This document shows positions 10,837 to 53,871 of a stretch of 64,000 bases of DNA, piece after piece. The stretch lies in contig JBBTVB010000006.1 in NCBI GenBank assembly GCA_038063455.1, positions 39,234-103,233 on the forward strand, written 5' to 3'. Positions within the stretch are counted from its first letter, which is position 1. Each line of letters begins with the position of its first letter. Made by a program: the position numbers and the translations under genes. The notes under the pieces were generated by a model that worked only from the letters and a program-made list of their open reading frames with translations, did no database searches and was not told the DNA's origin. This DNA comes from Patescibacteria group bacterium (GTDB taxonomy: Bacteria; Patescibacteriota; Patescibacteriia; PEXW01).

Positions 10837-11048
10837 TCTGCAAGCCCTCGAGGCTTGCGGGTGTTGTGTTTGTACTCAGACAGTTGTTTTTCCTCGTGTT
10901 CGCGGTACACGGGCACCGGTGGTAGGTCTGCCAGCCTTTCCAGTTCTAGCAGAATGCACCTCACTTTCTTGGGAATGTACGTTGTGGGTTTATGAGGGAC
11001 TATTCCCTCGGGTGTTTGTTTACAAATGTAGGCTAACACGAATATTTA

Positions 11049-11097
11049 GTGTTTTTTCCTGAGTTATCCACGACAGAACAGCGCCGTCGCGACGGCG
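11049..11097. repeat. Intergenic repeat, copy 1: T-run + DnaA-box-like TTATCCACG + perfect 16-bp palindrome CGCCGTCGCGACGGCG
   Basis: Sequence is gtgttttttcctgagttatccacgacagaacagcgccgtcgcgacggcg. The second copy at 14468-14517 is about 85% identical. It sits between two minus-strand genes. Confidence 0.7.
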
Positions 11098-12816: not shown

Positions 12817-12871
12817 CTCCCCTCCTTATCTAAGGAGGGGCAAAAAATTACCATTACTTAATGCGTAAGAC
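12817..12871. repeat. Left flank of DUF559 cassette: hairpin CCCCTCCTTA-TC-TAAGGAGGGG plus inverted 9-mer ATGCGTAAG
   Basis: A perfect 10-bp-stem hairpin lies at 12817-12838. 'atgcgtaag' at about 12859-12867 is the reverse complement of 'cttacgcat' at about 13365-13373. Confidence 0.6.
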
Positions 12872-12917
12872 TTTTTCTGCGACTACTCTGCTCACCGTCA
12901 AGCTCCTGGGGTGGTAA

Positions 12918-13325
12918 CTACGGACAAGGGTGTTGCAACGCACAACGTATGTAGTCTAAAGCGCCGTACTGGTTAACGCTAATCGATCGGGCAGAGAGGC
13001 GTATTACACGAAGCCCGAGTTGCTCCAAATATCGGTCGCGCAATCTGTCTTTTTGTATTTTGCCTGGCTCTCCGTGCTGGTCACCATCAACTTCAATGAC
13101 GAGGCGTTTTGCTGGACAATAGAAGTCAACAATATACCTGCCAATACTATGTTGACGTCTAAATTTTGCACCGAGTCCTTTGCCTTTGAGATGCGCCCAA
13201 AGTACAACTTCTGGCGGCGTCATATTTTTGCGCAGTTGCCTGCGGTACATTGCTAACCGGGTATGATTATGTATAGCTTGGGTCATAATAATTACCACCC
13301 CGGCTCCCGCTGTGGCGGGATCCAC
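12918..13325 (-). CDS. DUF559 / Vsr-like (PD-(D/E)xK) endonuclease-domain protein
   Basis: RRQHSIGRYIVDFYCPAKRLVIEVDGDQH fits the DUF559 core. The true start is probably one of the internal Met codons at 13286 or 13250. Confidence 0.6.
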   Translation of the reverse strand: MDPATAGAGVVIIMTQAIHNHTRLAMYRRQLRKNMTPPEVVLWAHLKGKGLGAKFRRQHSIGRYIVDFYCPAKRLVIEVDGDQHGEPGKIQKDRLRDRYLEQLGLRVIRLSARSISVNQYGALDYIRCALQHPCP

Positions 13326-13329
13326 CCCT

Positions 13330-13375
13330 CCTTATGCAAGGAGGGGAAGGGTAAGTTACATCCAAATAGCTTACG
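13330..13375. repeat. Right flank of DUF559 cassette: hairpin CCCCTCCTTA-TG-CAAGGAGGGG plus 9-mer CTTACGCAT
   Basis: Same hairpin stem as at 12817-12838, with a 2-nt loop difference, followed by the inverted 9-mer. Confidence 0.6.
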
Positions 13376-14361: not shown

Positions 14362-14467
14362 GGGATTCTCCTTTCTTTGAAAGAACATTATGGATTGTGC
14401 TACTCACCTCCTTTCCAGGTTAGATGAATAGCGTTTGTTGTTAGTTACAGGCTACCAGGTATTTTTG

Positions 14468-14517
14468 GTGTTTTTTGCTCACTTATCCACGACAAAAGCG
14501 CGCCGTCGCGACGGCGC
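14468..14517. repeat. Intergenic repeat, copy 2: T-run + TTATCCACG + palindrome (GCG)CGCCGTCGCGACGGCG(C)
   Basis: Sequence is gtgttttttgctcacttatccacgacaaaagcgcgccgtcgcgacggcgc. It lies 24 bp downstream of the DUF2207 gene stop. Confidence 0.7.
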
Positions 14518-48599: not shown

Positions 48600-48673
48600 C
48601 GGGTATAGTACAGTGGTAGTATGCGTCCTTCCCATGGATGAGATACGGGTTCGATTCCCGTTACCCGCTCCAG
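48600..48673 (+). tRNA. tRNA-Gly (anticodon CCC)
   Basis: Acceptor GCGGGTA/TACCCGC, anticodon loop TTCCCAT, T-arm ACGGG-TTCGATT-CCCGT. CCA is encoded. Confidence 0.8.
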
Positions 48674-48743
48674 AGGTAAGCTTGCCAATTTGGAGTCTTA
48701 GACTGAACAGAGGTTTATACTTTGAATAGACAGAGGGAATCGA

Positions 48744-48857
48744 ACGGGTGCGACCCATTGGGAGCACCCCGGCCCACAGGGCGATTCCCGTTACCCGCTC
48801 CAGCTCGTTTCGCGCTTCGTGCTCGCGTACGCTGCGCACCTGTCGCGCGGGGACCCC
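48744..48857. repeat. Degenerate tRNA fragments: inverted copy of motif GGGGTGCTCCCRATGGGTCGCACCCGT (48744-48770), then a duplicated tRNA-Gly 3' end (T-arm + acceptor + CCA) fused to a truncated trailer element ending GGGGACCCC
   Basis: gattcccgttacccgctcca at 48783-48802 repeats the tRNA-Gly 3' 20 nt. The following ccagctcgtttcgcgc...cgcggggacccc parallels the trailers after the other tRNAs. Confidence 0.6.
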
Positions 48858-48878
48858 AGGGGAAAGTTTGAAAGATGT

Positions 48879-48954: not shown

Positions 48955-49097
48955 GCTCGTTACGGGCGTCGGGTTCCGCGTCCCCGCATCCGCGAGGCCG
49001 CTGCACCCTCAACCCGCAACTTCGCTTGACCCCACGACCGCGTGCTCGTCGTCCCGCGCAAGCGCGTGACTCCTGCGCGCCACGCTCGTGGGGACCC
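48955..49097 (+). repeat. Conserved tRNA 3'-trailer element, copy A (core 49023-49097: CGCTTGACCCCACGACCGCGTGCTC...GCGCGCCACGCTCGTGGGGACCCC)
   Basis: It starts immediately after the CCA with GCTCGTTACG. Copies also follow tRNA-Trp and tRNA-Thr(GGU), and there is internal dyad symmetry (CCCCACGA...TCGTGGGG). Confidence 0.65.
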
Positions 49098-49104
49098 CGG
49101 GAAG

Positions 49105-50219: not shown

Positions 50220-50630
50220 TTAGTTACGGGCGGGCCTAAAGAAGAATTTCCACCAACGCTGAGAGTTCGACGTACCGCCAGCATCGGTGTGAGTTGCAAC
50301 TTCGGAATCGGTTGTAGAAAGTTGTCGGGTTTCGGGCAAGATGAGCAGGGATTCCCCGGGGCGCTGCACGTTCAGCCGCTTGCGGGCTTCCCGCTCGCGA
50401 AAGCTATCGGTGTTAATCGAGGCGACGTACTCGCCTAACGTTCGGTTTTGCGCTTCCAACTCGGCGATCTGCTGTTCCAGGGTAGCAACTTCTTCTCGAA
50501 GGGAAAGCCTGCGCACCACTTCTTTGGTAATGCCGACCACCAAAAAAGCGATAAGCAGTATTTCAAAAACGATCACGCCTCGAGACGTCAGCGCGCGCCG
50601 TAATGCTCGTTTGCGTTCTTGATTTCTCAT
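50220..50630 (-). CDS. Septum formation initiator FtsB/DivIC-like
   Basis: 136 aa with one TM (VIVFEILLIAFLVVGI) then a coiled coil (LREEVATLEQQIAELEAQNRTL). Confidence 0.55.
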   Translation of the reverse strand: MRNQERKRALRRALTSRGVIVFEILLIAFLVVGITKEVVRRLSLREEVATLEQQIAELEAQNRTLGEYVASINTDSFREREARKRLNVQRPGESLLILPETRQLSTTDSEVATHTDAGGTSNSQRWWKFFFRPARN

Positions 50631-50713
50631 GGCAGGACATTGGTTTTACGCTTGTACATTGTCACACAATCGTCTGTGTTCGTCAACCCAGGACCACTTT
50701 GCACCTGTTACAA

Positions 50714-51397
50714 CTAGACTATTTCCTCACGCGTAACCTCGCGTGCATCACCGGGGGCGAGCGCACCAAGCACAAGCCTGTTAATACGCACTCGAGTAAG
50801 ACGCAGAACATCCACCTGGACCCGCCCAAACATGCGACGGATTTGCCGCTTCCAGCCCTGGTGTAAAACCACGCGATAGGTCTTTGGTCCGACCTCTTCT
50901 AGCTTGTCAAAATAGGCCCGACCCTCTTGGAGCTTTACCCCTTGCCGCAGCTCGGCCAGTGCATCAGCATCCAAATGGTGCGACGTGCCAATTTCGTACT
51001 CTTTTTCGTGCTGGAAGCGCGGGTGGGTTAGCTCATTTGCAAGCGCGCCGTCATTGGTCAGCAGCATGAGCCCCTCGGAGTCCTTGTCGAGGCGGCCGGC
51101 AATAACTAGGTCGCGCACGCCTGGGATGATGTCATAAATGGTTCGCTCACTTTTGTACTGCGCCCGCGTCGAAACCACGCCAACAGGTTTGTTGACGGCA
51201 AGATACCGAAACGTCGTAGGTGGTTTTAAGTCGATCCCATCCACCCGCACCGTATCTTTTTCCGGGTCAATACTGGTGCCGAGCTTGGCGACTTGCAAGC
51301 CATTTACAAAAACTTTCCCAGCCGAAATCAGCGTCTCGGCTTTCCGCCGTGACACTATGCCGGTACTGGCAATGAATTTATGGAGACGGGTCAACAT
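50714..51397 (-). CDS. Pseudouridine synthase, RsuA/RluB family
   Basis: It has an S4 domain (KFIASTGIVSRRKAETLISAGKVFVNG) and the catalytic motif GRLDKDSEGLMLLTNDG. Confidence 0.8.
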   Translation of the reverse strand: MLTRLHKFIASTGIVSRRKAETLISAGKVFVNGLQVAKLGTSIDPEKDTVRVDGIDLKPPTTFRYLAVNKPVGVVSTRAQYKSERTIYDIIPGVRDLVIAGRLDKDSEGLMLLTNDGALANELTHPRFQHEKEYEIGTSHHLDADALAELRQGVKLQEGRAYFDKLEEVGPKTYRVVLHQGWKRQIRRMFGRVQVDVLRLTRVRINRLVLGALAPGDAREVTREEIV

Positions 51398-51407
51398 AGC
51401 TATGCTT

Positions 51408-51541
51408 GGGGTCCCCGTGAGCGTGGCGCGCACGAACGCAGTGAGGAGCACGCGGTCATGGGGTCAAGCGAGGCTTCGTCCCCGACTGCGGAGCGGGTTC
51501 GGCGCTGGCGGATACGCGGAGCGAAGAGGGGCGAAACGAGC
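51408..51541 (-). repeat. Conserved tRNA 3'-trailer element, copy B (downstream of tRNA-Trp)
   Basis: On the minus strand the sequence after the CCA reads GCTCGTTTCGCCCC...CGCTTGACCCCATGACCGCGTGCTC...GCGCGCCACGCTCACGGGGACCCC. Confidence 0.65.
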
Positions 51542-51616
51542 TGGCGGGGGCACTAGGATTCGAACCTAGAATAACGGTTTTGGAGACCGTTGTGATAACC
51601 GTTTCACCATGCCCCC
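51542..51616 (-). tRNA. tRNA-Trp (anticodon CCA)
   Basis: Minus-strand cloverleaf: acceptor GGGGGCA/TGCCCCC, anticodon loop CTCCAAA, T-arm CTAGG-TTCGAAT-CCTAG. CCA is encoded. Confidence 0.8.
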
Positions 51617-51622
51617 AAGTTG

Positions 51623-51868
51623 TTAAGCAATAGCGAGACGTTTCTTCAATGCTTGCAATGCGGAGCCATATGCTTTCAATTTCTGTTCTCGCACCCTTGC
51701 CAAAGCTTCGTTATTATAAGCTTCATAATACACCAGCTCTGGCTTATCCATGTGGCGCGTTGTTTGCGTCTGACCTTGCGCGTGTTCAGCGAGGCGACGC
51801 TGAAGATTGTTGGTCGAGCCAATATAATTTCGACCCTGTGCATCCTTTAGTAAATAGACGTAATACAT
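51623..51868 (-). CDS. GIY-YIG nuclease-domain protein (UPF0213-like, ~81 aa)
   Basis: MYYVYLLKDAQGRNYIGSTNNLQRRLAEHAQG is a textbook GIY-YIG motif (YxVYxL...G..YIGsT.NL.rRL.eH). The ORF-track start at 51937 lies inside an upstream hairpin. Confidence 0.7.
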   Translation of the reverse strand: MYYVYLLKDAQGRNYIGSTNNLQRRLAEHAQGQTQTTRHMDKPELVYYEAYNNEALARVREQKLKAYGSALQALKKRLAIA

Positions 51869-51939
51869 AGTGGTTTTGGACCCAGCCCTTCGCGAAGGGC
51901 TGGGTAGAGACCGCTGCCTGCCCAGCCATGCGCGCATGG

Positions 51940-51965
51940 CTGGGTGATAGCCGTTTCACCATGCC
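51940..51965 (-). repeat. Duplicated 5' fragment of tRNA-Trp (acceptor 5' strand + D-arm; 24/26 identical) upstream of the GIY-YIG ORF
   Basis: The minus strand has GGGGGCATGGTGAAACGGCTATCACC, against GGGGGCATGGTGAAACGGTTATCACA in the intact gene. Two GC-rich hairpins follow. Confidence 0.65.
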
Positions 51966-51995
51966 CCCATAGGGTGTAAACGCGTTGTAAAGACG

Positions 51996-52151
51996 TTATT
52001 TCGTTTCCTTATGCAACGTATGCTTGCCGCACCAGGTGCAGTGTTTCTTCAACTCTAAGCGACCCTTGAGGGTCTTCTTATTTTTTTTCGAATGGTAGTT
52101 TACGTGCTTGCAAACTGTGCACTCGAGATTTATCAGGTTGTCTTGGGACAT
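51996..52151 (-). CDS. rpmG: 50S ribosomal protein L33
   Basis: [51 protein letters not shown] shows the Zn-ribbon L33 pattern. Confidence 0.8.
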
Positions 52152-52190
52152 ACTATTATGAGTAATGAAGAAATGTATTAAATATTTCGC

Positions 52191-52266
52191 TGGAGCCACC
52201 CGTCGGATTCGAACCGACGACCTTCGCTTTACAAAAGCGTTGCTCTACCAGCTGAGCTAGGGTGGC
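52191..52266 (-). tRNA. tRNA-Thr (anticodon UGU)
   Basis: Acceptor GCCACCC/GGGTGGC, anticodon loop TTTGTAA, T-arm GTCGG-TTCGAAT-CCGAC. CCA is encoded. It lies 39 nt upstream of rpmG. Confidence 0.8.
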
Positions 52267-52287
52267 CTAGGTTCTGGTAACCGAGGT

Positions 52288-52360
52288 GCCGGAGACCCCG
52301 CCGTGGCGGGGCGACCTTCGCTTTACAAAAGCGTTGCTCTACCAGCTGAGCTACTCCGGC
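52288..52360 (-). pseudogene. tRNA-Thr(UGU)-derived pseudo-tRNA: own acceptor stem (GCCGGAG/CTCCGGC), intact D- and anticodon arms identical over ~42 nt to tRNA-Thr(UGU), T-arm replaced by GC hairpin CCCCGCC-GTG-GCGGGG
   Basis: Minus-strand read: GCCGGAGTAGCTCAGCTGGTAGAGCAACGCTTTTGTAAAGCGAAGGTCGCCCCGCCACGGCGGGGTCTCCGGC. There is no TΨC loop. Confidence 0.55.
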
Positions 52361-52440
52361 AAGATTTTGAAGAACTACGAGGATCCCGCGTCCGCCTCCA
52401 TAGTAGCAGCAAACGGGCGGGACAAAAGCGTTGCTCTTCC

Positions 52441-52557
52441 GGGGTGCTCCCGATGGGTCGCACCCGTCCCGCCTACGGCGGGACCCAGCTGAGTCCCGAC
52501 ACCGCGTTGCGGTGTCGCGGATCCTCGCCCCGACGATGCTACGTCGTGGGCGGGACT
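52441..52557. repeat. Composite repeat block: GGGGTGCTCCCGATGGGTCGCACCCGT motif, hairpin GTCCCGCC-TAC-GGCGGGAC, and ~65-nt element GAGTCCCGAC-hairpin-GGATCCTCGCCCCGACG...CGTCGTGGGCGGGACTA (second copy at 52887-52950)
   Basis: All motifs recur elsewhere in the window: 48744-48770 (inverted), 22268-22284, 24402-24419 and 52887-52950. Confidence 0.6.
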
Positions 52558-52622
52558 ATCCCGGCAAATTTTGAAAGTCAGTTGAGTGACATAGTCGTAC
52601 TTTTCAAGAATCTTCTCGGGGA

Positions 52623-52763
52623 TTCCCCACGAGCGTGGCGCGCAGGAGTCACGCGCTTGCGCGAGACGACGAGCACGCGGTCGTGGGGTCAAGCGAGGCT
52701 TCGTGCGATGGGCGCAGTGGGCTGCCGAATGGCGGCACACGGAGCTCGGAGCGCGAAACGAGC
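52623..52763 (-). repeat. Conserved tRNA 3'-trailer element, copy C (downstream of tRNA-Thr GGU)
   Basis: Minus strand after the CCA: GCTCGTTTCGCGC...CGCTTGACCCCACGACCGCGTGCTCGTCGTCTCGCGCAAGCGCGTGACTCCTGCGCGCCACGCTCGTGGGGAATC. It is about 97% identical to copy A over the 75-nt core. Confidence 0.65.
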
Positions 52764-52839
52764 TGGAGCCGATGGCCGGAATTGAACCGGCGACCTACTC
52801 CTTACCATGGAGTTGCTCTACCAGCTGAGCTACATCGGC
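52764..52839 (-). tRNA. tRNA-Thr (anticodon GGU)
   Basis: Acceptor GCCGATG/CATCGGC, anticodon loop ATGGTAA, T-arm GCCGG-TTCAATT-CCGGC. CCA is encoded. Confidence 0.75.
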
Positions 52840-52886
52840 ATAATGTTTGGAAAACGTTTGTCAGGTTCAAGGTGCAAGGCCTCGCT

Positions 52887-52950
52887 GAGTCCCGACCCCG
52901 TAGGGGTCGTGGATCCTCGCCCCGACGCTGCTGCGTCGTGGGCGGGACTA
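52887..52950. repeat. Second copy of the GAGTCCCGAC-hairpin-GGATCCTCGCCCCGACG...GGGCGGGACTA element, followed by a duplicated 13 nt of the tRNA-Thr(GGU) 5' end (CTACATCGGCATA)
   Basis: Compare 52491-52557. ctacatcggcata also occurs at the 5' end of the tRNA-Thr(GGU) gene (52829-52845). Confidence 0.6.
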
Positions 52951-52980
52951 CATCGGCATATAGATTGGGAACCTACGACT

Positions 52981-53871
52981 CTACAATTCTTTCACGGCTT
53001 GTGCAAGTTCCTCAAGTTTTTGATTCTCTGGGTTAGCGGCTTGTAGTTTTTCGAGTGCTGCTTTTGCGAGATTTTTTCGTTTGCTAGTTAGTGCAAACTG
53101 GAGCAACGCATCGAGATACTTTGGGTTTGCCGGTTCCAGTTTAACGGCTTCTTGGTACGCAGTCTCGGCTTTGTCGATGTTGCCCAGGTTTTCTTCGGTG
53201 ACACCCAGTTCATAGTGCGTACCTGCAGTGAGGGCGTTGAGGCTCACAGACTTTAAATAGTCGGCTTCCGCTTCGGCAAACTTCCCTTCCTGGGTGTCAA
53301 TATTACCCAACCGCGCGTAGGCAACATCGCTATCTTGCTGCAACTTGAGTACGAACTTCAGAGCTTCGCGAGCATTGACGTAATCTTTGCGGGCAGTTGC
53401 AGCATCGGCCAATCCCAGGTACGCGTCAATATTCTTAGGGTCTAAGCTGACGACATCCACAAAGTGCTGCTCGGCCCGGGGCCAATCCCCTGCCGCAACC
53501 GCAGTTTGCGCTTCGGTGAGGGCGGCGGCAACTTTTGCGCGCAGCGCATCCGGGTCGTCAATGGCTTGCTGCACCACAATCTTCCGACGATACTCGCGTT
53601 CTAACTGCGTCAATTTTGTAAAAATGTTTTGTCCGGTGGTGCGCACGCCGCGGAAAAAACTAGCAAACCCCTTGGCAATAACCGCTTCCACATTCCCGAG
53701 CTTCTGCTGCAGGCGCTTATCTAAAATTTGCTGTTTGCGAAGTTGATGCTGGTGCTTCGGTATAGCTTCAATGCGGATGCTAGCCAACTGCGGCAGCTTA
53801 CGCCACACAACCACCGCGCAGGCAGCCACGCTAGCGGCAAACACTCCTAGTAAAATCCAATCAACAAGCAT
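52981..53871 (-). CDS. Membrane-anchored TPR-repeat protein
   Basis: It has an N-terminal TM and multiple TPR units (AYLGLADAATARKDYVNAREALKFVLKL..., AYARLGNIDTQEGKFAEAEADYLKSV..., THYELGVTEENLGNIDKAETAYQEAVKLEP). Confidence 0.6.
   Translation of the reverse strand: MLVDWILLGVFAASVAACAVVVWRKLPQLASIRIEAIPKHQHQLRKQQILDKRLQQKLGNVEAVIAKGFASFFRGVRTTGQNIFTKLTQLEREYRRKIVVQQAIDDPDALRAKVAAALTEAQTAVAAGDWPRAEQHFVDVVSLDPKNIDAYLGLADAATARKDYVNAREALKFVLKLQQDSDVAYARLGNIDTQEGKFAEAEADYLKSVSLNALTAGTHYELGVTEENLGNIDKAETAYQEAVKLEPANPKYLDALLQFALTSKRKNLAKAALEKLQAANPENQKLEELAQAVKEL

Follow-up and report, generated by a model that had tools for sequence, protein, structure and literature searches.

A palindrome-interrupted tRNA-Trp remnant beside a GIY-YIG gene in a Patescibacteria genome: a possible footprint of a small selfish element

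A stretch of 64,000 nt from a metagenome-assembled genome of the Patescibacteria (candidate phyla radiation), referred to here as the window, harbors a small open reading frame (ORF) for a GIY-YIG nuclease domain between the genes rpmG and rluB. The ORF is preceded by a remnant of a tRNA-Trp gene, which is interrupted by GC-rich palindromes, and is followed by an intact tRNA-Trp gene. Comparison with other metagenome loci (L001-L182) suggests that this arrangement was left by a small selfish GIY-YIG element of a transposon-like or homing-like kind, which has hairpin derivatives, a reading to which a probability of about 0.6 is assigned. The locus is apparently one instance of a widespread association of GIY-YIG genes, GC palindromes, and tRNA genes that has not been described so far. 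No description of this arrangement was found in the literature, the coverage of which was incomplete, so that this is no proof of novelty.

The interval from rpmG to rluB, both read on the minus strand, has a length of 598 nt, and its sole contents are the 81-aa ORF and tRNA-Trp (Table 1). An earlier reading of the window, in the following called the original prediction, had given the order as rpmG, a tRNA fragment, two hairpins, an 81-aa ORF, 6 nt, tRNA-Trp, and a trailer. This order holds, except that the spacer behind rpmG comprises 27 nt and not 30 nt. The predicted 26-nt copy of the tRNA-Trp 5' end is also present, as a direct repeat (51969-51944 and 51617-51592) consisting of one T and tRNA positions 1-25; it is identical at 25/26 and not at 24/26 positions, and the copy runs on to position 41. 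The remnant thus represents the 5' two-thirds of a tRNA-Trp gene, positions 1-41, in three pieces parted by two palindromic inserts of 28 nt each. None of 300 shuffles matched the score of the spliced alignment, while the portion beyond the 26-mer, taken alone, has a score that was matched by 11 of 1000 shuffles. The start codon of the ORF lies only 3 nt past the last piece of the remnant. No clean target duplication was seen at the flanks of insert 1, which is missing from the intact tRNA-Trp of the window and from the tRNA-Trp of L174; the flanks of insert 2 agree in three of four positions. The intact tRNA-Trp(CCA) is presumably the functional gene. An orphan 3' piece of the old tRNA-Trp was not found in the trailer, where 199 of 300 shuffles matched the score, and no inverted repeats were found around the window ORF, the best candidate being of 6 bp and at chance level. 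A scan of positions 50500-53500 by Rfam E-value returned the tRNAs and two weak plus-strand Plastid-ycf2 matches, which overlap them and are far below the gathering score.

Table 1. Features of the rpmG-tRNA-Trp locus and of the neighboring tRNA-Thr remnants, in window coordinates.
Feature	Position	Strand	Description	Evidence
rpmG	51996..52151	-	ribosomal protein L33, upstream anchor	Pfam PF00471, E 2.2e-18
Spacer after rpmG	51995-51969	-	27 nt	
tRNA-Trp remnant, positions 1-24	51945..51968	-	acceptor 5' strand, D arm	23/24 vs intact gene
Hairpin insert 1	51917..51944	-	28 nt: 24-nt perfect palindrome CCCAGCCATGCGCGCATGGCTGGG (51944-51921) + CAGG	
tRNA-Trp remnant, positions 25-32	51909..51916	-	anticodon stem 5' strand	7/8, spliced alignment
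Hairpin insert 2	51881..51908	-	28 nt, in anticodon loop: ACCCAGCCCTTCGCGAAGGGCTGGGT, perfect palindrome 51905-51880, flanks TCTA / TCCA	
tRNA-Trp remnant, positions 33-41	51872..51880	-	TCCAAAACC; U33, anticodon, start of 3' stem strand	9/9
GIY-YIG ORF	51623..51868	-	81 aa, single domain, UPF0213/SLX1-like	Pfam PF01541, E 2.5e-13
Gap from ORF stop to tRNA	51622-51617	-	6 nt	
Intact tRNA-Trp(CCA)	51542..51616	-		ARAGORN; Rfam tRNA 67.7 bits; 85% identical to L174 tRNA-Trp
GC-rich trailer	51398..51541	-	~144 nt, from directly after CCA to rluB start	no Rfam match
Pseudo-tRNA-Thr(UGU)	52287..52360	-	T arm replaced by hairpin CCCCGCCACGGCGGGG, no ORF	Rfam 44.9 bits, T arm skipped
Older tRNA-Thr(UGU) remnant	52422..52565	-	pieces 1-10, 11-15, 16-35 between GC hairpins	spliced alignment, 0/300 shuffles

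An assembly artefact, such as a chimeric join or a collapsed repeat at the tRNA cluster, hardly comes into consideration as the origin of this layout. It is true that contigs of relatives tend to break here: L001, the closest relative according to RluB (89% amino acid identity), has a contig that stops 60 nt upstream of rluB and is uninformative on the site. However, three other, independent assemblies (NCBI, Logan, and ENA) are 99.9-100% identical to the window over the region, from which it follows that the locus is no artefact, and a dozen unrelated metagenomes show this layout as well. The identical contigs stem from metagenomes of the Hainich aquifer.

Relatives of the locus were found using L33, the product of rpmG, as a handle. 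In L174 and L175, which encode an L33 with 48/51 identical residues (94%), the gene order is the same as in the window (rpsB-tsf-TPR, tRNA-Thr(GGT), tRNA-Thr(UGU), rpmG, tRNA-Trp, rluB, ftsB, ppiC), but the rpmG stop codon is followed by 39 nt, tRNA-Trp, 26 nt, and rluB, without ORF, fragment, hairpins, or trailer. L178 (L33 45/51, 88%) is likewise empty, with tRNA-Trp directly behind rpmG and neither ORF nor fragment nor hairpins. Judged by these empty sites, the window cassette is an insertion, which corresponds to a gain of ~450 bp between rpmG and rluB over the syntenic relatives when the trailer is excluded. In a blastn alignment, rpmG, the spacer, and tRNA nucleotides 1-25 of L174 are colinear with window positions 52155-51944, so that the remnant occupies the place of the ancestral tRNA. 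An insertion at tRNA-Trp that leaves the old 5' fragment behind had been predicted, and the comparison with empty sites, in which rpmG is directly followed by tRNA-Trp, bears this out. The opposite outcome, with the ORF present in all relatives and a fragment similarity that disappears on alignment, is not what was found, as these relatives are empty.

The gene rpmG also precedes tRNA-Trp in L174, L178, L084, L095, and L138. Between the two genes, the site is occupied in the window, L084, L095, L138, and others and is empty in L174, L175, and L178. The lineages with the ORF at this site have an L33 that is just 51-73% identical to that of the window, and the distribution is patchy. As the remnant and the 5' part of the resident gene are direct repeats, a clean loss by recombination would be possible, and therefore the distribution alone cannot separate gain from loss. 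In two other close relatives, the interval between rpmG and tRNA-Trp carries different cargo, namely a 183-aa HD-domain gene in L177 (2001-2805) and a 139-aa ORF in L176 (2001-2578), which suggests that it is a general insertion hot spot.

The fate of the old tRNA gene can be followed in L084, a locus from Doudnabacteria with an ORF that is 55% identical to the window ORF. Here, the upstream fragment belongs to another tRNA-Trp type than the resident gene, and an orphan piece with T arm and acceptor sequence follows 52 nt after the resident tRNA-Trp. In its relative L182, whose L33 is 86% identical to that of L084, there is no ORF and a single intact tRNA-Trp. Positions 2421-2454 of L084 correspond to positions 1-34 of this tRNA-Trp (31/34), and positions 2878-2917 correspond to its positions 35-74 (39/40). 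Together, the halves match in 70/74 positions with a score of 120, compared to a shuffle maximum of 45. The 423 nt between them contain a hairpin, a short duplicated segment of the anticodon arm, the ORF, and a complete tRNA-Trp of the other type, which is flanked by an 11-bp inverted repeat. As the halves rebuild the L182 gene, the old gene of L084 has been split and the working copy resides inside the insert. The predicted regeneration of the tRNA gene by the cassette is therefore correct insofar as a working copy is supplied. In the window, by analogy to the case demonstrated in L084, this copy is probably a second complete tRNA-Trp beside the ORF and not the repaired old gene.

Nested tRNA genes were also observed elsewhere. 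In L179 (GCA_003597955.1, positions 1187-1430), a tRNA-Trp-like gene bounded by inverted repeats is located downstream of rpmG inside the anticodon loop of another tRNA-Trp, the 5' and 3' halves of which flank the inner gene; neither is detected as a tRNA by ARAGORN. Genes for tRNA-Ile(UAU) are nested in the same way in L143, where an orphan 3' half lies downstream.

Linkage of the ORF to tRNA genes was assessed in 83 homolog loci, 80 of which were obtained from a family-alignment scan of metagenome contigs and three from protein look-ups. A same-strand tRNA-Trp is found 7-116 nt past the ORF stop in 13 loci, and another same-strand tRNA (Pro, Ala, Ile, Tyr, or Glu) takes this place in eight further ones. 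Any same-strand tRNA thus follows directly 3' of the ORF in 21/83 loci, compared to a background of 0.9% from the same loci (binomial P ~3e-24), and tRNA-Trp occurs nowhere else within the 83 loci. At least 11 further lineages of Patescibacteria share the layout of the window at tRNA-Trp, and one case involves tRNA-Glu. Ten Trp loci and the Glu locus L170 have a 5' tRNA part upstream of the ORF. Mostly, this part ends in the anticodon arm and carries a GC palindrome of 24-28 nt in the anticodon loop, as in the window. In L084, L094, L096, and L110, the palindrome sits at the site of insert 2 in the form TCCA/CCC...GGG/TCCA, where TCCA consists of U33 and the anticodon. In a neighbor-joining tree, 12 of the 13 Trp-linked ORFs fall into one clade. 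Other contexts of the family are pyrB-pyrC, many different tRNAs, and fusions to pilin genes.

Some loci deviate from this layout. L141 (2501-3430) contains two tandem GIY-YIG ORFs, each directly 5' of a tRNA-Ala (CGC, then GGC), and the tRNA-Ala 5' end is copied as GGGGCCT directly before the start of the second ORF. In L180 (1741-2195), the closest relative of L084, the ORF lies 123 nt downstream and not upstream of tRNA-Trp; the palindrome ACGTCGTTCGCGAACGACGT directly follows the CCA end, and a partial repeat of the tRNA 3' end comes next.

Most family members elsewhere form a unit of ~0.3 kb composed of inverted repeat, ORF, and inverted repeat. Terminal inverted repeats of at least 12 bp (12-25 bp) enclose the ORF tightly in 49 loci and have the form (A)CCCC[C/G/T]..../....GGGG(T). 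The start codon is preceded by the left repeat at a distance of ~0-40 nt. The right repeat as a rule overlaps the stop codon or adjoins it; in three loci, it is placed 58-88 nt downstream. When the unit ends were set at CCC...GGG, identical 4-nt flanks were found for 8/41 non-redundant units, compared to 1.3% in a control of mismatched loci, and one further unit has a 5-nt duplication. The sequences of repeats and hairpins are specific to protein clades. In L106 (AACCCAGCCCTCTATGC) and L091, the nearest bracketed relatives of the window, the repeats have their first 10 nt in common with the window hairpin arm ACCCAGCCCTTCG. Owing to these shared termini, the hairpins are best read as two fused repeats, that is, as miniatures without ORF. 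Tandem hairpins in L138 and nested hairpins in L095 fit repeated insertion. At tRNA 5' ends in L134, L143, and L161, the terminal GGG together with the duplicated 4 nt rebuilds tRNA positions 1-7, which makes such a hit harmless.

It might be argued that these structures act as RNA, the tRNA-like 5' half and the hairpins serving as a structured leader with a regulating or stabilizing effect on the GIY-YIG mRNA or on the tRNA precursor downstream and the bracketing repeats serving as stems for RNA processing. In most Trp-type loci the start codon indeed lies 3-40 nt past the anticodon-stem remnant without a Shine-Dalgarno sequence, some hairpin centers are non-palindromic (CGTG, CTCG, CACG), as loops would be, and inverted repeats similar to processing stems occur on either side of the new tRNAs of L084, L143, and L181. 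This explanation is nevertheless very improbable. It accounts neither for the 4-bp direct duplications nor for the nested and tandem hairpins, leaves the orphan 3' tRNA halves and the empty sites in relatives unexplained, and is not backed by a match to any Rfam family.

The ORF product matches the Pfam GIY-YIG family PF01541 with 50.6 bits (cut-off 22.6). All family-invariant residues, determined from 54 homologs with ~50% identity, are present in the window ORF (Y3, Y5, G17, R25, H29, Y47, E49, E61, and K65), and Y3/Y5, Y15-I16-G17, R25, H29, and E61 are invariant or nearly so across these homologs. The AlphaFold2 (AF2) model has a predicted local distance difference test score (pLDDT) of 87 and shows the order beta-beta-alpha-beta-alpha-alpha. 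In profile searches against the PDB, the best matches were 1zg2 (E 2.3e-12) and 1ywl (1.1e-8), which are the UPF0213 proteins BH0048 and EF2693, respectively, followed by SLX1 (2e-4) and, marginally, I-TevI (2.4e-3). Foldseek likewise ranked 1zg2, 1ywl, and SLX1 (6seh) at the top. On this basis, the question whether the protein belongs to the homing endonucleases or to UPF0213/YhbQ, which the original prediction had raised, is settled by profile and fold: the ORF product is a member of the UPF0213/YhbQ/SLX1 branch and not of the two-domain I-TevI type. A homing endonuclease of the I-TevI/Seg type was rejected since the 81-aa protein lacks the two-domain organization and scores below the cut-off of TIGR01453, a model for group-I-intron endonucleases (20.5 bits, cut-off 56). 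The match to a PHROG homing-endonuclease family had an E-value of 0.002, and no phage homologs of the ORF were found by tblastn among 50,697 phage records. The wider family is large, with 27,016 clusters at 50% identity matching the profile at E<=1e-3. Many of its best-scoring members in a library of 1.8 billion proteins are longer, with 230-510 aa (P0242, P0247, P0248, P0252, P0255, and P0262). In these, GIY-YIG occupies residues 1-80, and behind it comes a T2SS-G domain or an N-methylation motif as in type IV pilins; the ORF either has undergone fusion with pilin-like genes or continues into them by read-through.

The UPF0213/SLX1 branch includes cellular repair nucleases, and SLX1 itself acts together with SLX4 on branched DNA. 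The protein could be a domesticated host factor, for example for repair or for defense of tRNA genes against hairpins, which is kept in the tRNA-Trp operon for co-expression and leaves the remnants as collateral. The conservation of its catalytic residues and the old age of the Trp-linked clade (45-65% identity) would fit such a role. On the minus strand from rpmG to tRNA-Trp, no candidate promoter or terminator site was found, which agrees with co-transcription. A host function is improbable, however, in the light of the patchy distribution, in which the nearest relatives are without the gene, and of the occurrence of family members in unrelated contexts (pyrB-pyrC, many tRNAs, pilin fusions), and inverted repeats together with target duplications are typical of mobile elements. 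A co-opted tRNA-processing factor, which had been offered as an alternative in the original prediction, finds no support in these varied contexts either.

Under the preferred reading of a small selfish element, the GIY-YIG protein would move both the ORF-bearing units and the hairpins without ORF. Its substrate may be structured or palindromic DNA, cut with a short stagger, and its preferred targets would be tRNA genes, at their loops and at their 5' and 3' ends. A hit on an essential single-copy tRNA would be survivable only if a complete copy of the tRNA either accompanies the ORF or arises next to it by duplication. Flanks derived from the tRNA could then act as homology arms, by which the block of ORF and tRNA might spread or be lost through recombination at any tRNA-Trp gene. 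For the window, this would mean that the upstream remnant is the old tRNA-Trp, which was hit by hairpins and displaced by the ORF and a complete tRNA-Trp, and that its 3' part was lost later. The GIY-YIG protein is regarded as the probable driver because of its linkage to tRNA genes, the specificity of the repeats for protein clades, its relatedness to a nuclease that is structure-specific, and the conservation of its active site.

Dead tRNA copies are not confined to tRNA-Trp, and the window contains at least five remnants or pseudo-tRNA pieces in total. The pseudo-tRNA-Thr(UGU) lies directly upstream of an intact tRNA-Thr(UGU) (52266-52191), from which it differs in the acceptor stem. Its positions 1-48 are identical to those of the functional tRNA-Thr(UGU) of L174 (48/48), indicating that the dead upstream copy is the ancestral one. 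A 5' piece of tRNA-Thr(GGT), consisting of 10 and 6 nt (52957-52948 and 52889-52884), was observed upstream of the corresponding intact gene. Throughout the tRNA-Thr cluster (52190-52975, minus strand), the dead copies are always located upstream of the live one.

Such series could also arise by local tandem duplication through slippage or unequal recombination. The upstream copy would then have decayed, gained hairpins, and lost its 3' part, with the ORF as an unrelated passenger and without any transfer of a cassette of ORF and tRNA. In line with this, the remnant and the resident gene of the window (23/24 identical) have four derived states in common compared to L174, the fragments of L099, L110, and L138 are 100% identical to the 5' part of the resident gene, the upstream pseudo-tRNA of L102 is complete, and the tRNA-Thr(UGU) series of the window consists of serial copies without an ORF. 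In contrast, the fragments of L084, L094, L096, L119, and L153 belong to a different tRNA-Trp type (56-76% identity) and are still well formed, and in L084 the old gene is demonstrably split around the ORF and a tRNA of foreign type. The acceptor stem of the replacement tRNA-Thr(UGU) in the window differs from the ancestral type, and a chance passenger would not be expected just 5' of tRNA-Trp, at a distance of 6-17 nt, in 13 independent loci. Local duplication is therefore considered an unlikely explanation for the locus type.

Several observations weigh against a selfish GIY-YIG element. In the window itself, remnant and resident tRNA-Trp share 96% identity and an orphan 3' piece is missing, which leaves room for a purely local duplication at this particular site. 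The resident tRNA-Trp keeps an intact anticodon loop, so that a simple immunity by disruption of the target does not apply. Inverted repeats do not enclose the ORF in the Trp-type loci, of which the window is one. Nor does the block keep a constant place with respect to the old tRNA: L095 has it 5' of this tRNA, L084 and the window have it near position 43, and in L102 it comes after position 76, behind a complete pseudo-gene. ORF distances track those of the fragments (rho 0.39) slightly better than those of the resident tRNAs (rho 0.10), less strictly linked than a cassette of ORF and tRNA predicts; this test is weak, with non-independent pairs and sequences of 33 nt, and its direction is opposite to the evidence from L084. 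The relatives with empty sites are only ~65% identical in coding DNA, and the tree that unites the Trp-linked ORFs is a neighbor-joining tree of ~80 residues without support values. The protein is a bare catalytic domain of 81 aa without a second or DNA-binding domain. GIY-YIG proteins are not established transposases, and to our knowledge no GIY-YIG transposase has been reported; none was found in a literature search, which left subscription journals mostly outside its coverage.

A more far-reaching proposal concerns the family as a whole. Tentatively, and with somewhat less than even confidence, the UPF0213-type GIY-YIG proteins of Patescibacteria may be mobilizing nucleases of a hitherto unrecognized class of transposon-like inverted-repeat elements of ~0.3 kb, which generate 4-bp duplications and spawn miniature GC hairpins in tRNA loops. 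One clade would have specialized on tRNA-Trp and would provide a replacement tRNA. Elements of this kind might serially kill and replace essential tRNA genes, which could explain the remnants in the window.

The nearest functional analog is SegB of phage T4, a free-standing GIY-YIG homing endonuclease encoded in the T4 tRNA gene cluster (PMC2330249). As with SegB and T4-like Seg proteins, the nuclease gene is situated among tRNA genes, is patchily distributed in relatives, and is thought to promote its own inheritance along with neighboring tRNA sequence. In contrast to the window protein, which consists of the catalytic domain only and is nearer to UPF0213/SLX1, Seg proteins have ~200 aa or more including a DNA-binding domain. 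Seg genes are borne by phages, whereas the window ORF is part of a cellular genome. They are also not known to be accompanied by tRNA remnants, palindromic hairpins, inverted repeats, or target duplications such as those found here. The UPF0213/YhbQ proteins BH0048 and EF2693 resemble the window protein more closely, being single domains of ~80-100 aa with the same catalytic motifs and the best profile and fold matches. We know of no described mobility, flanking repeats, or tRNA linkage for UPF0213/SLX1 proteins.

Partial tRNA copies are also left behind by islands and prophages that integrate into tRNA genes with their own integrases (PMC9897764). These islands have sizes of 9-120 kb, depend on tyrosine or serine recombinases, and usually duplicate the 3' part of the tRNA, while the units described here comprise ~0.3-0.45 kb, encode no recombinase, leave a 5' remnant, and in L084 supply a whole foreign tRNA. 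An integrase-type island was rejected for the window on account of the missing recombinase gene and of the small rpmG-rluB interval. A structural likeness exists to the repetitive extragenic palindromes and bacterial interspersed mosaic elements (REP/BIME) with their REP-associated tyrosine transposases (RAYT) and to miniature inverted-repeat transposable elements (MITEs): a nuclease gene lies within GC-rich inverted repeats, palindromes without ORF are scattered nearby, and the repeat co-varies with the enzyme clade. However, RAYTs are HUH/Y1 enzymes and the partners of MITEs are mostly DDE transposases, whereas the enzyme here is of the GIY-YIG type and the targets are tRNA loops and ends rather than intergenic DNA in general. 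In yeast mitochondria, mobile GC clusters are short GC-rich palindromes that invade genes and each other in an AT-richer genome and produce short target duplications. They differ in that they occur in organelle genomes, have no established GIY-YIG partner, and are not focused on tRNA genes. The tRNA and rRNA genes of Patescibacteria are known to carry group I introns and insertions of homing endonucleases (PMC13011429, PMC11270868). These tRNA introns share the host phylum and the interruption of the anticodon loop with the locus described here, but the interrupted copy of the latter lacks a 3' half, so that splicing cannot restore it and a second gene copy keeps the function. A group I intron in the tRNA was likewise rejected, as neither an Rfam intron match nor a 3' exon half downstream was found.

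The UPF0213/YhbQ family is very large and has no accepted function. If the proposed mobility is true, a part of this family would be assigned a role as the engine of a tiny mobile element. This would also explain the GC-rich hairpins and partial tRNA genes that clutter tRNA loci in the candidate phyla radiation, and it would mean that a selfish element is tolerated in an essential single-copy gene by means of a spare copy that is brought along or kept, and not by splicing. An 81-aa nuclease that recognizes defined palindromes would, in this case, be attractive for biochemistry. Annotation of tRNA genes in such genomes needs care, and the interval between rpmG and tRNA-Trp could be used as a marker of element gain and loss.

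The trailer behind tRNA-Trp is one of several copies in the window. Copies of ~145 nt are located at 51398-51541, 52612-52763, and 48955-49104, and a shorter form at 48803-48870; they are 72-81% identical. The trailer begins with GCTCGTTTCGC directly after the CCA of tRNA-Trp, tRNA-Thr(GGT), tRNA-Thr(CGT), and a duplicated tRNA-Gly 3' end. It is missing after tRNA-Trp and tRNA-Thr(GGT) of L174, although the latter gene is 100% identical to that of the window. Relatives of the trailer, which has no Rfam match, are present in L001 and L178. The trailer of tRNA-Trp may belong to the inserted material.

A further tRNA gene with adjoining inserted sequence is shared with L001. In the window (48673-48802) and in L001 (2432-2552), an insert of ~108 nt comes after tRNA-Gly(CCC), and behind the insert the last 22 nt of the tRNA gene are repeated (21/22). 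The small GC stems of the insert differ between the two loci while the pairing is kept (GGGTGC...GCACCC; CCC-ACA-GGG versus CCCC-GAA-GGGG), which hints at a structured RNA or an element.

A second small nuclease gene bracketed by palindromes is present at 12819-13346 of the window. This ORF for a 122-aa DUF559 (Vsr-like) protein (13286-12918, minus strand; Pfam E 5.9e-28) is flanked by the near-identical hairpins CCCCTCCTTATCTAAGGAGGGG (12819-12840) and CCCCTCCTTATGCAAGGAGGGG (13325-13346). In addition, a direct repeat of 68 nt occurs at 11030-11097 and 14449-14516, ~3.4 kb apart, with 84% identity. The repeat ends in the palindrome GCGCCGTCGCGACGGCGC, and its two copies flank several small ORFs, one of which has a weak NikA-like match.

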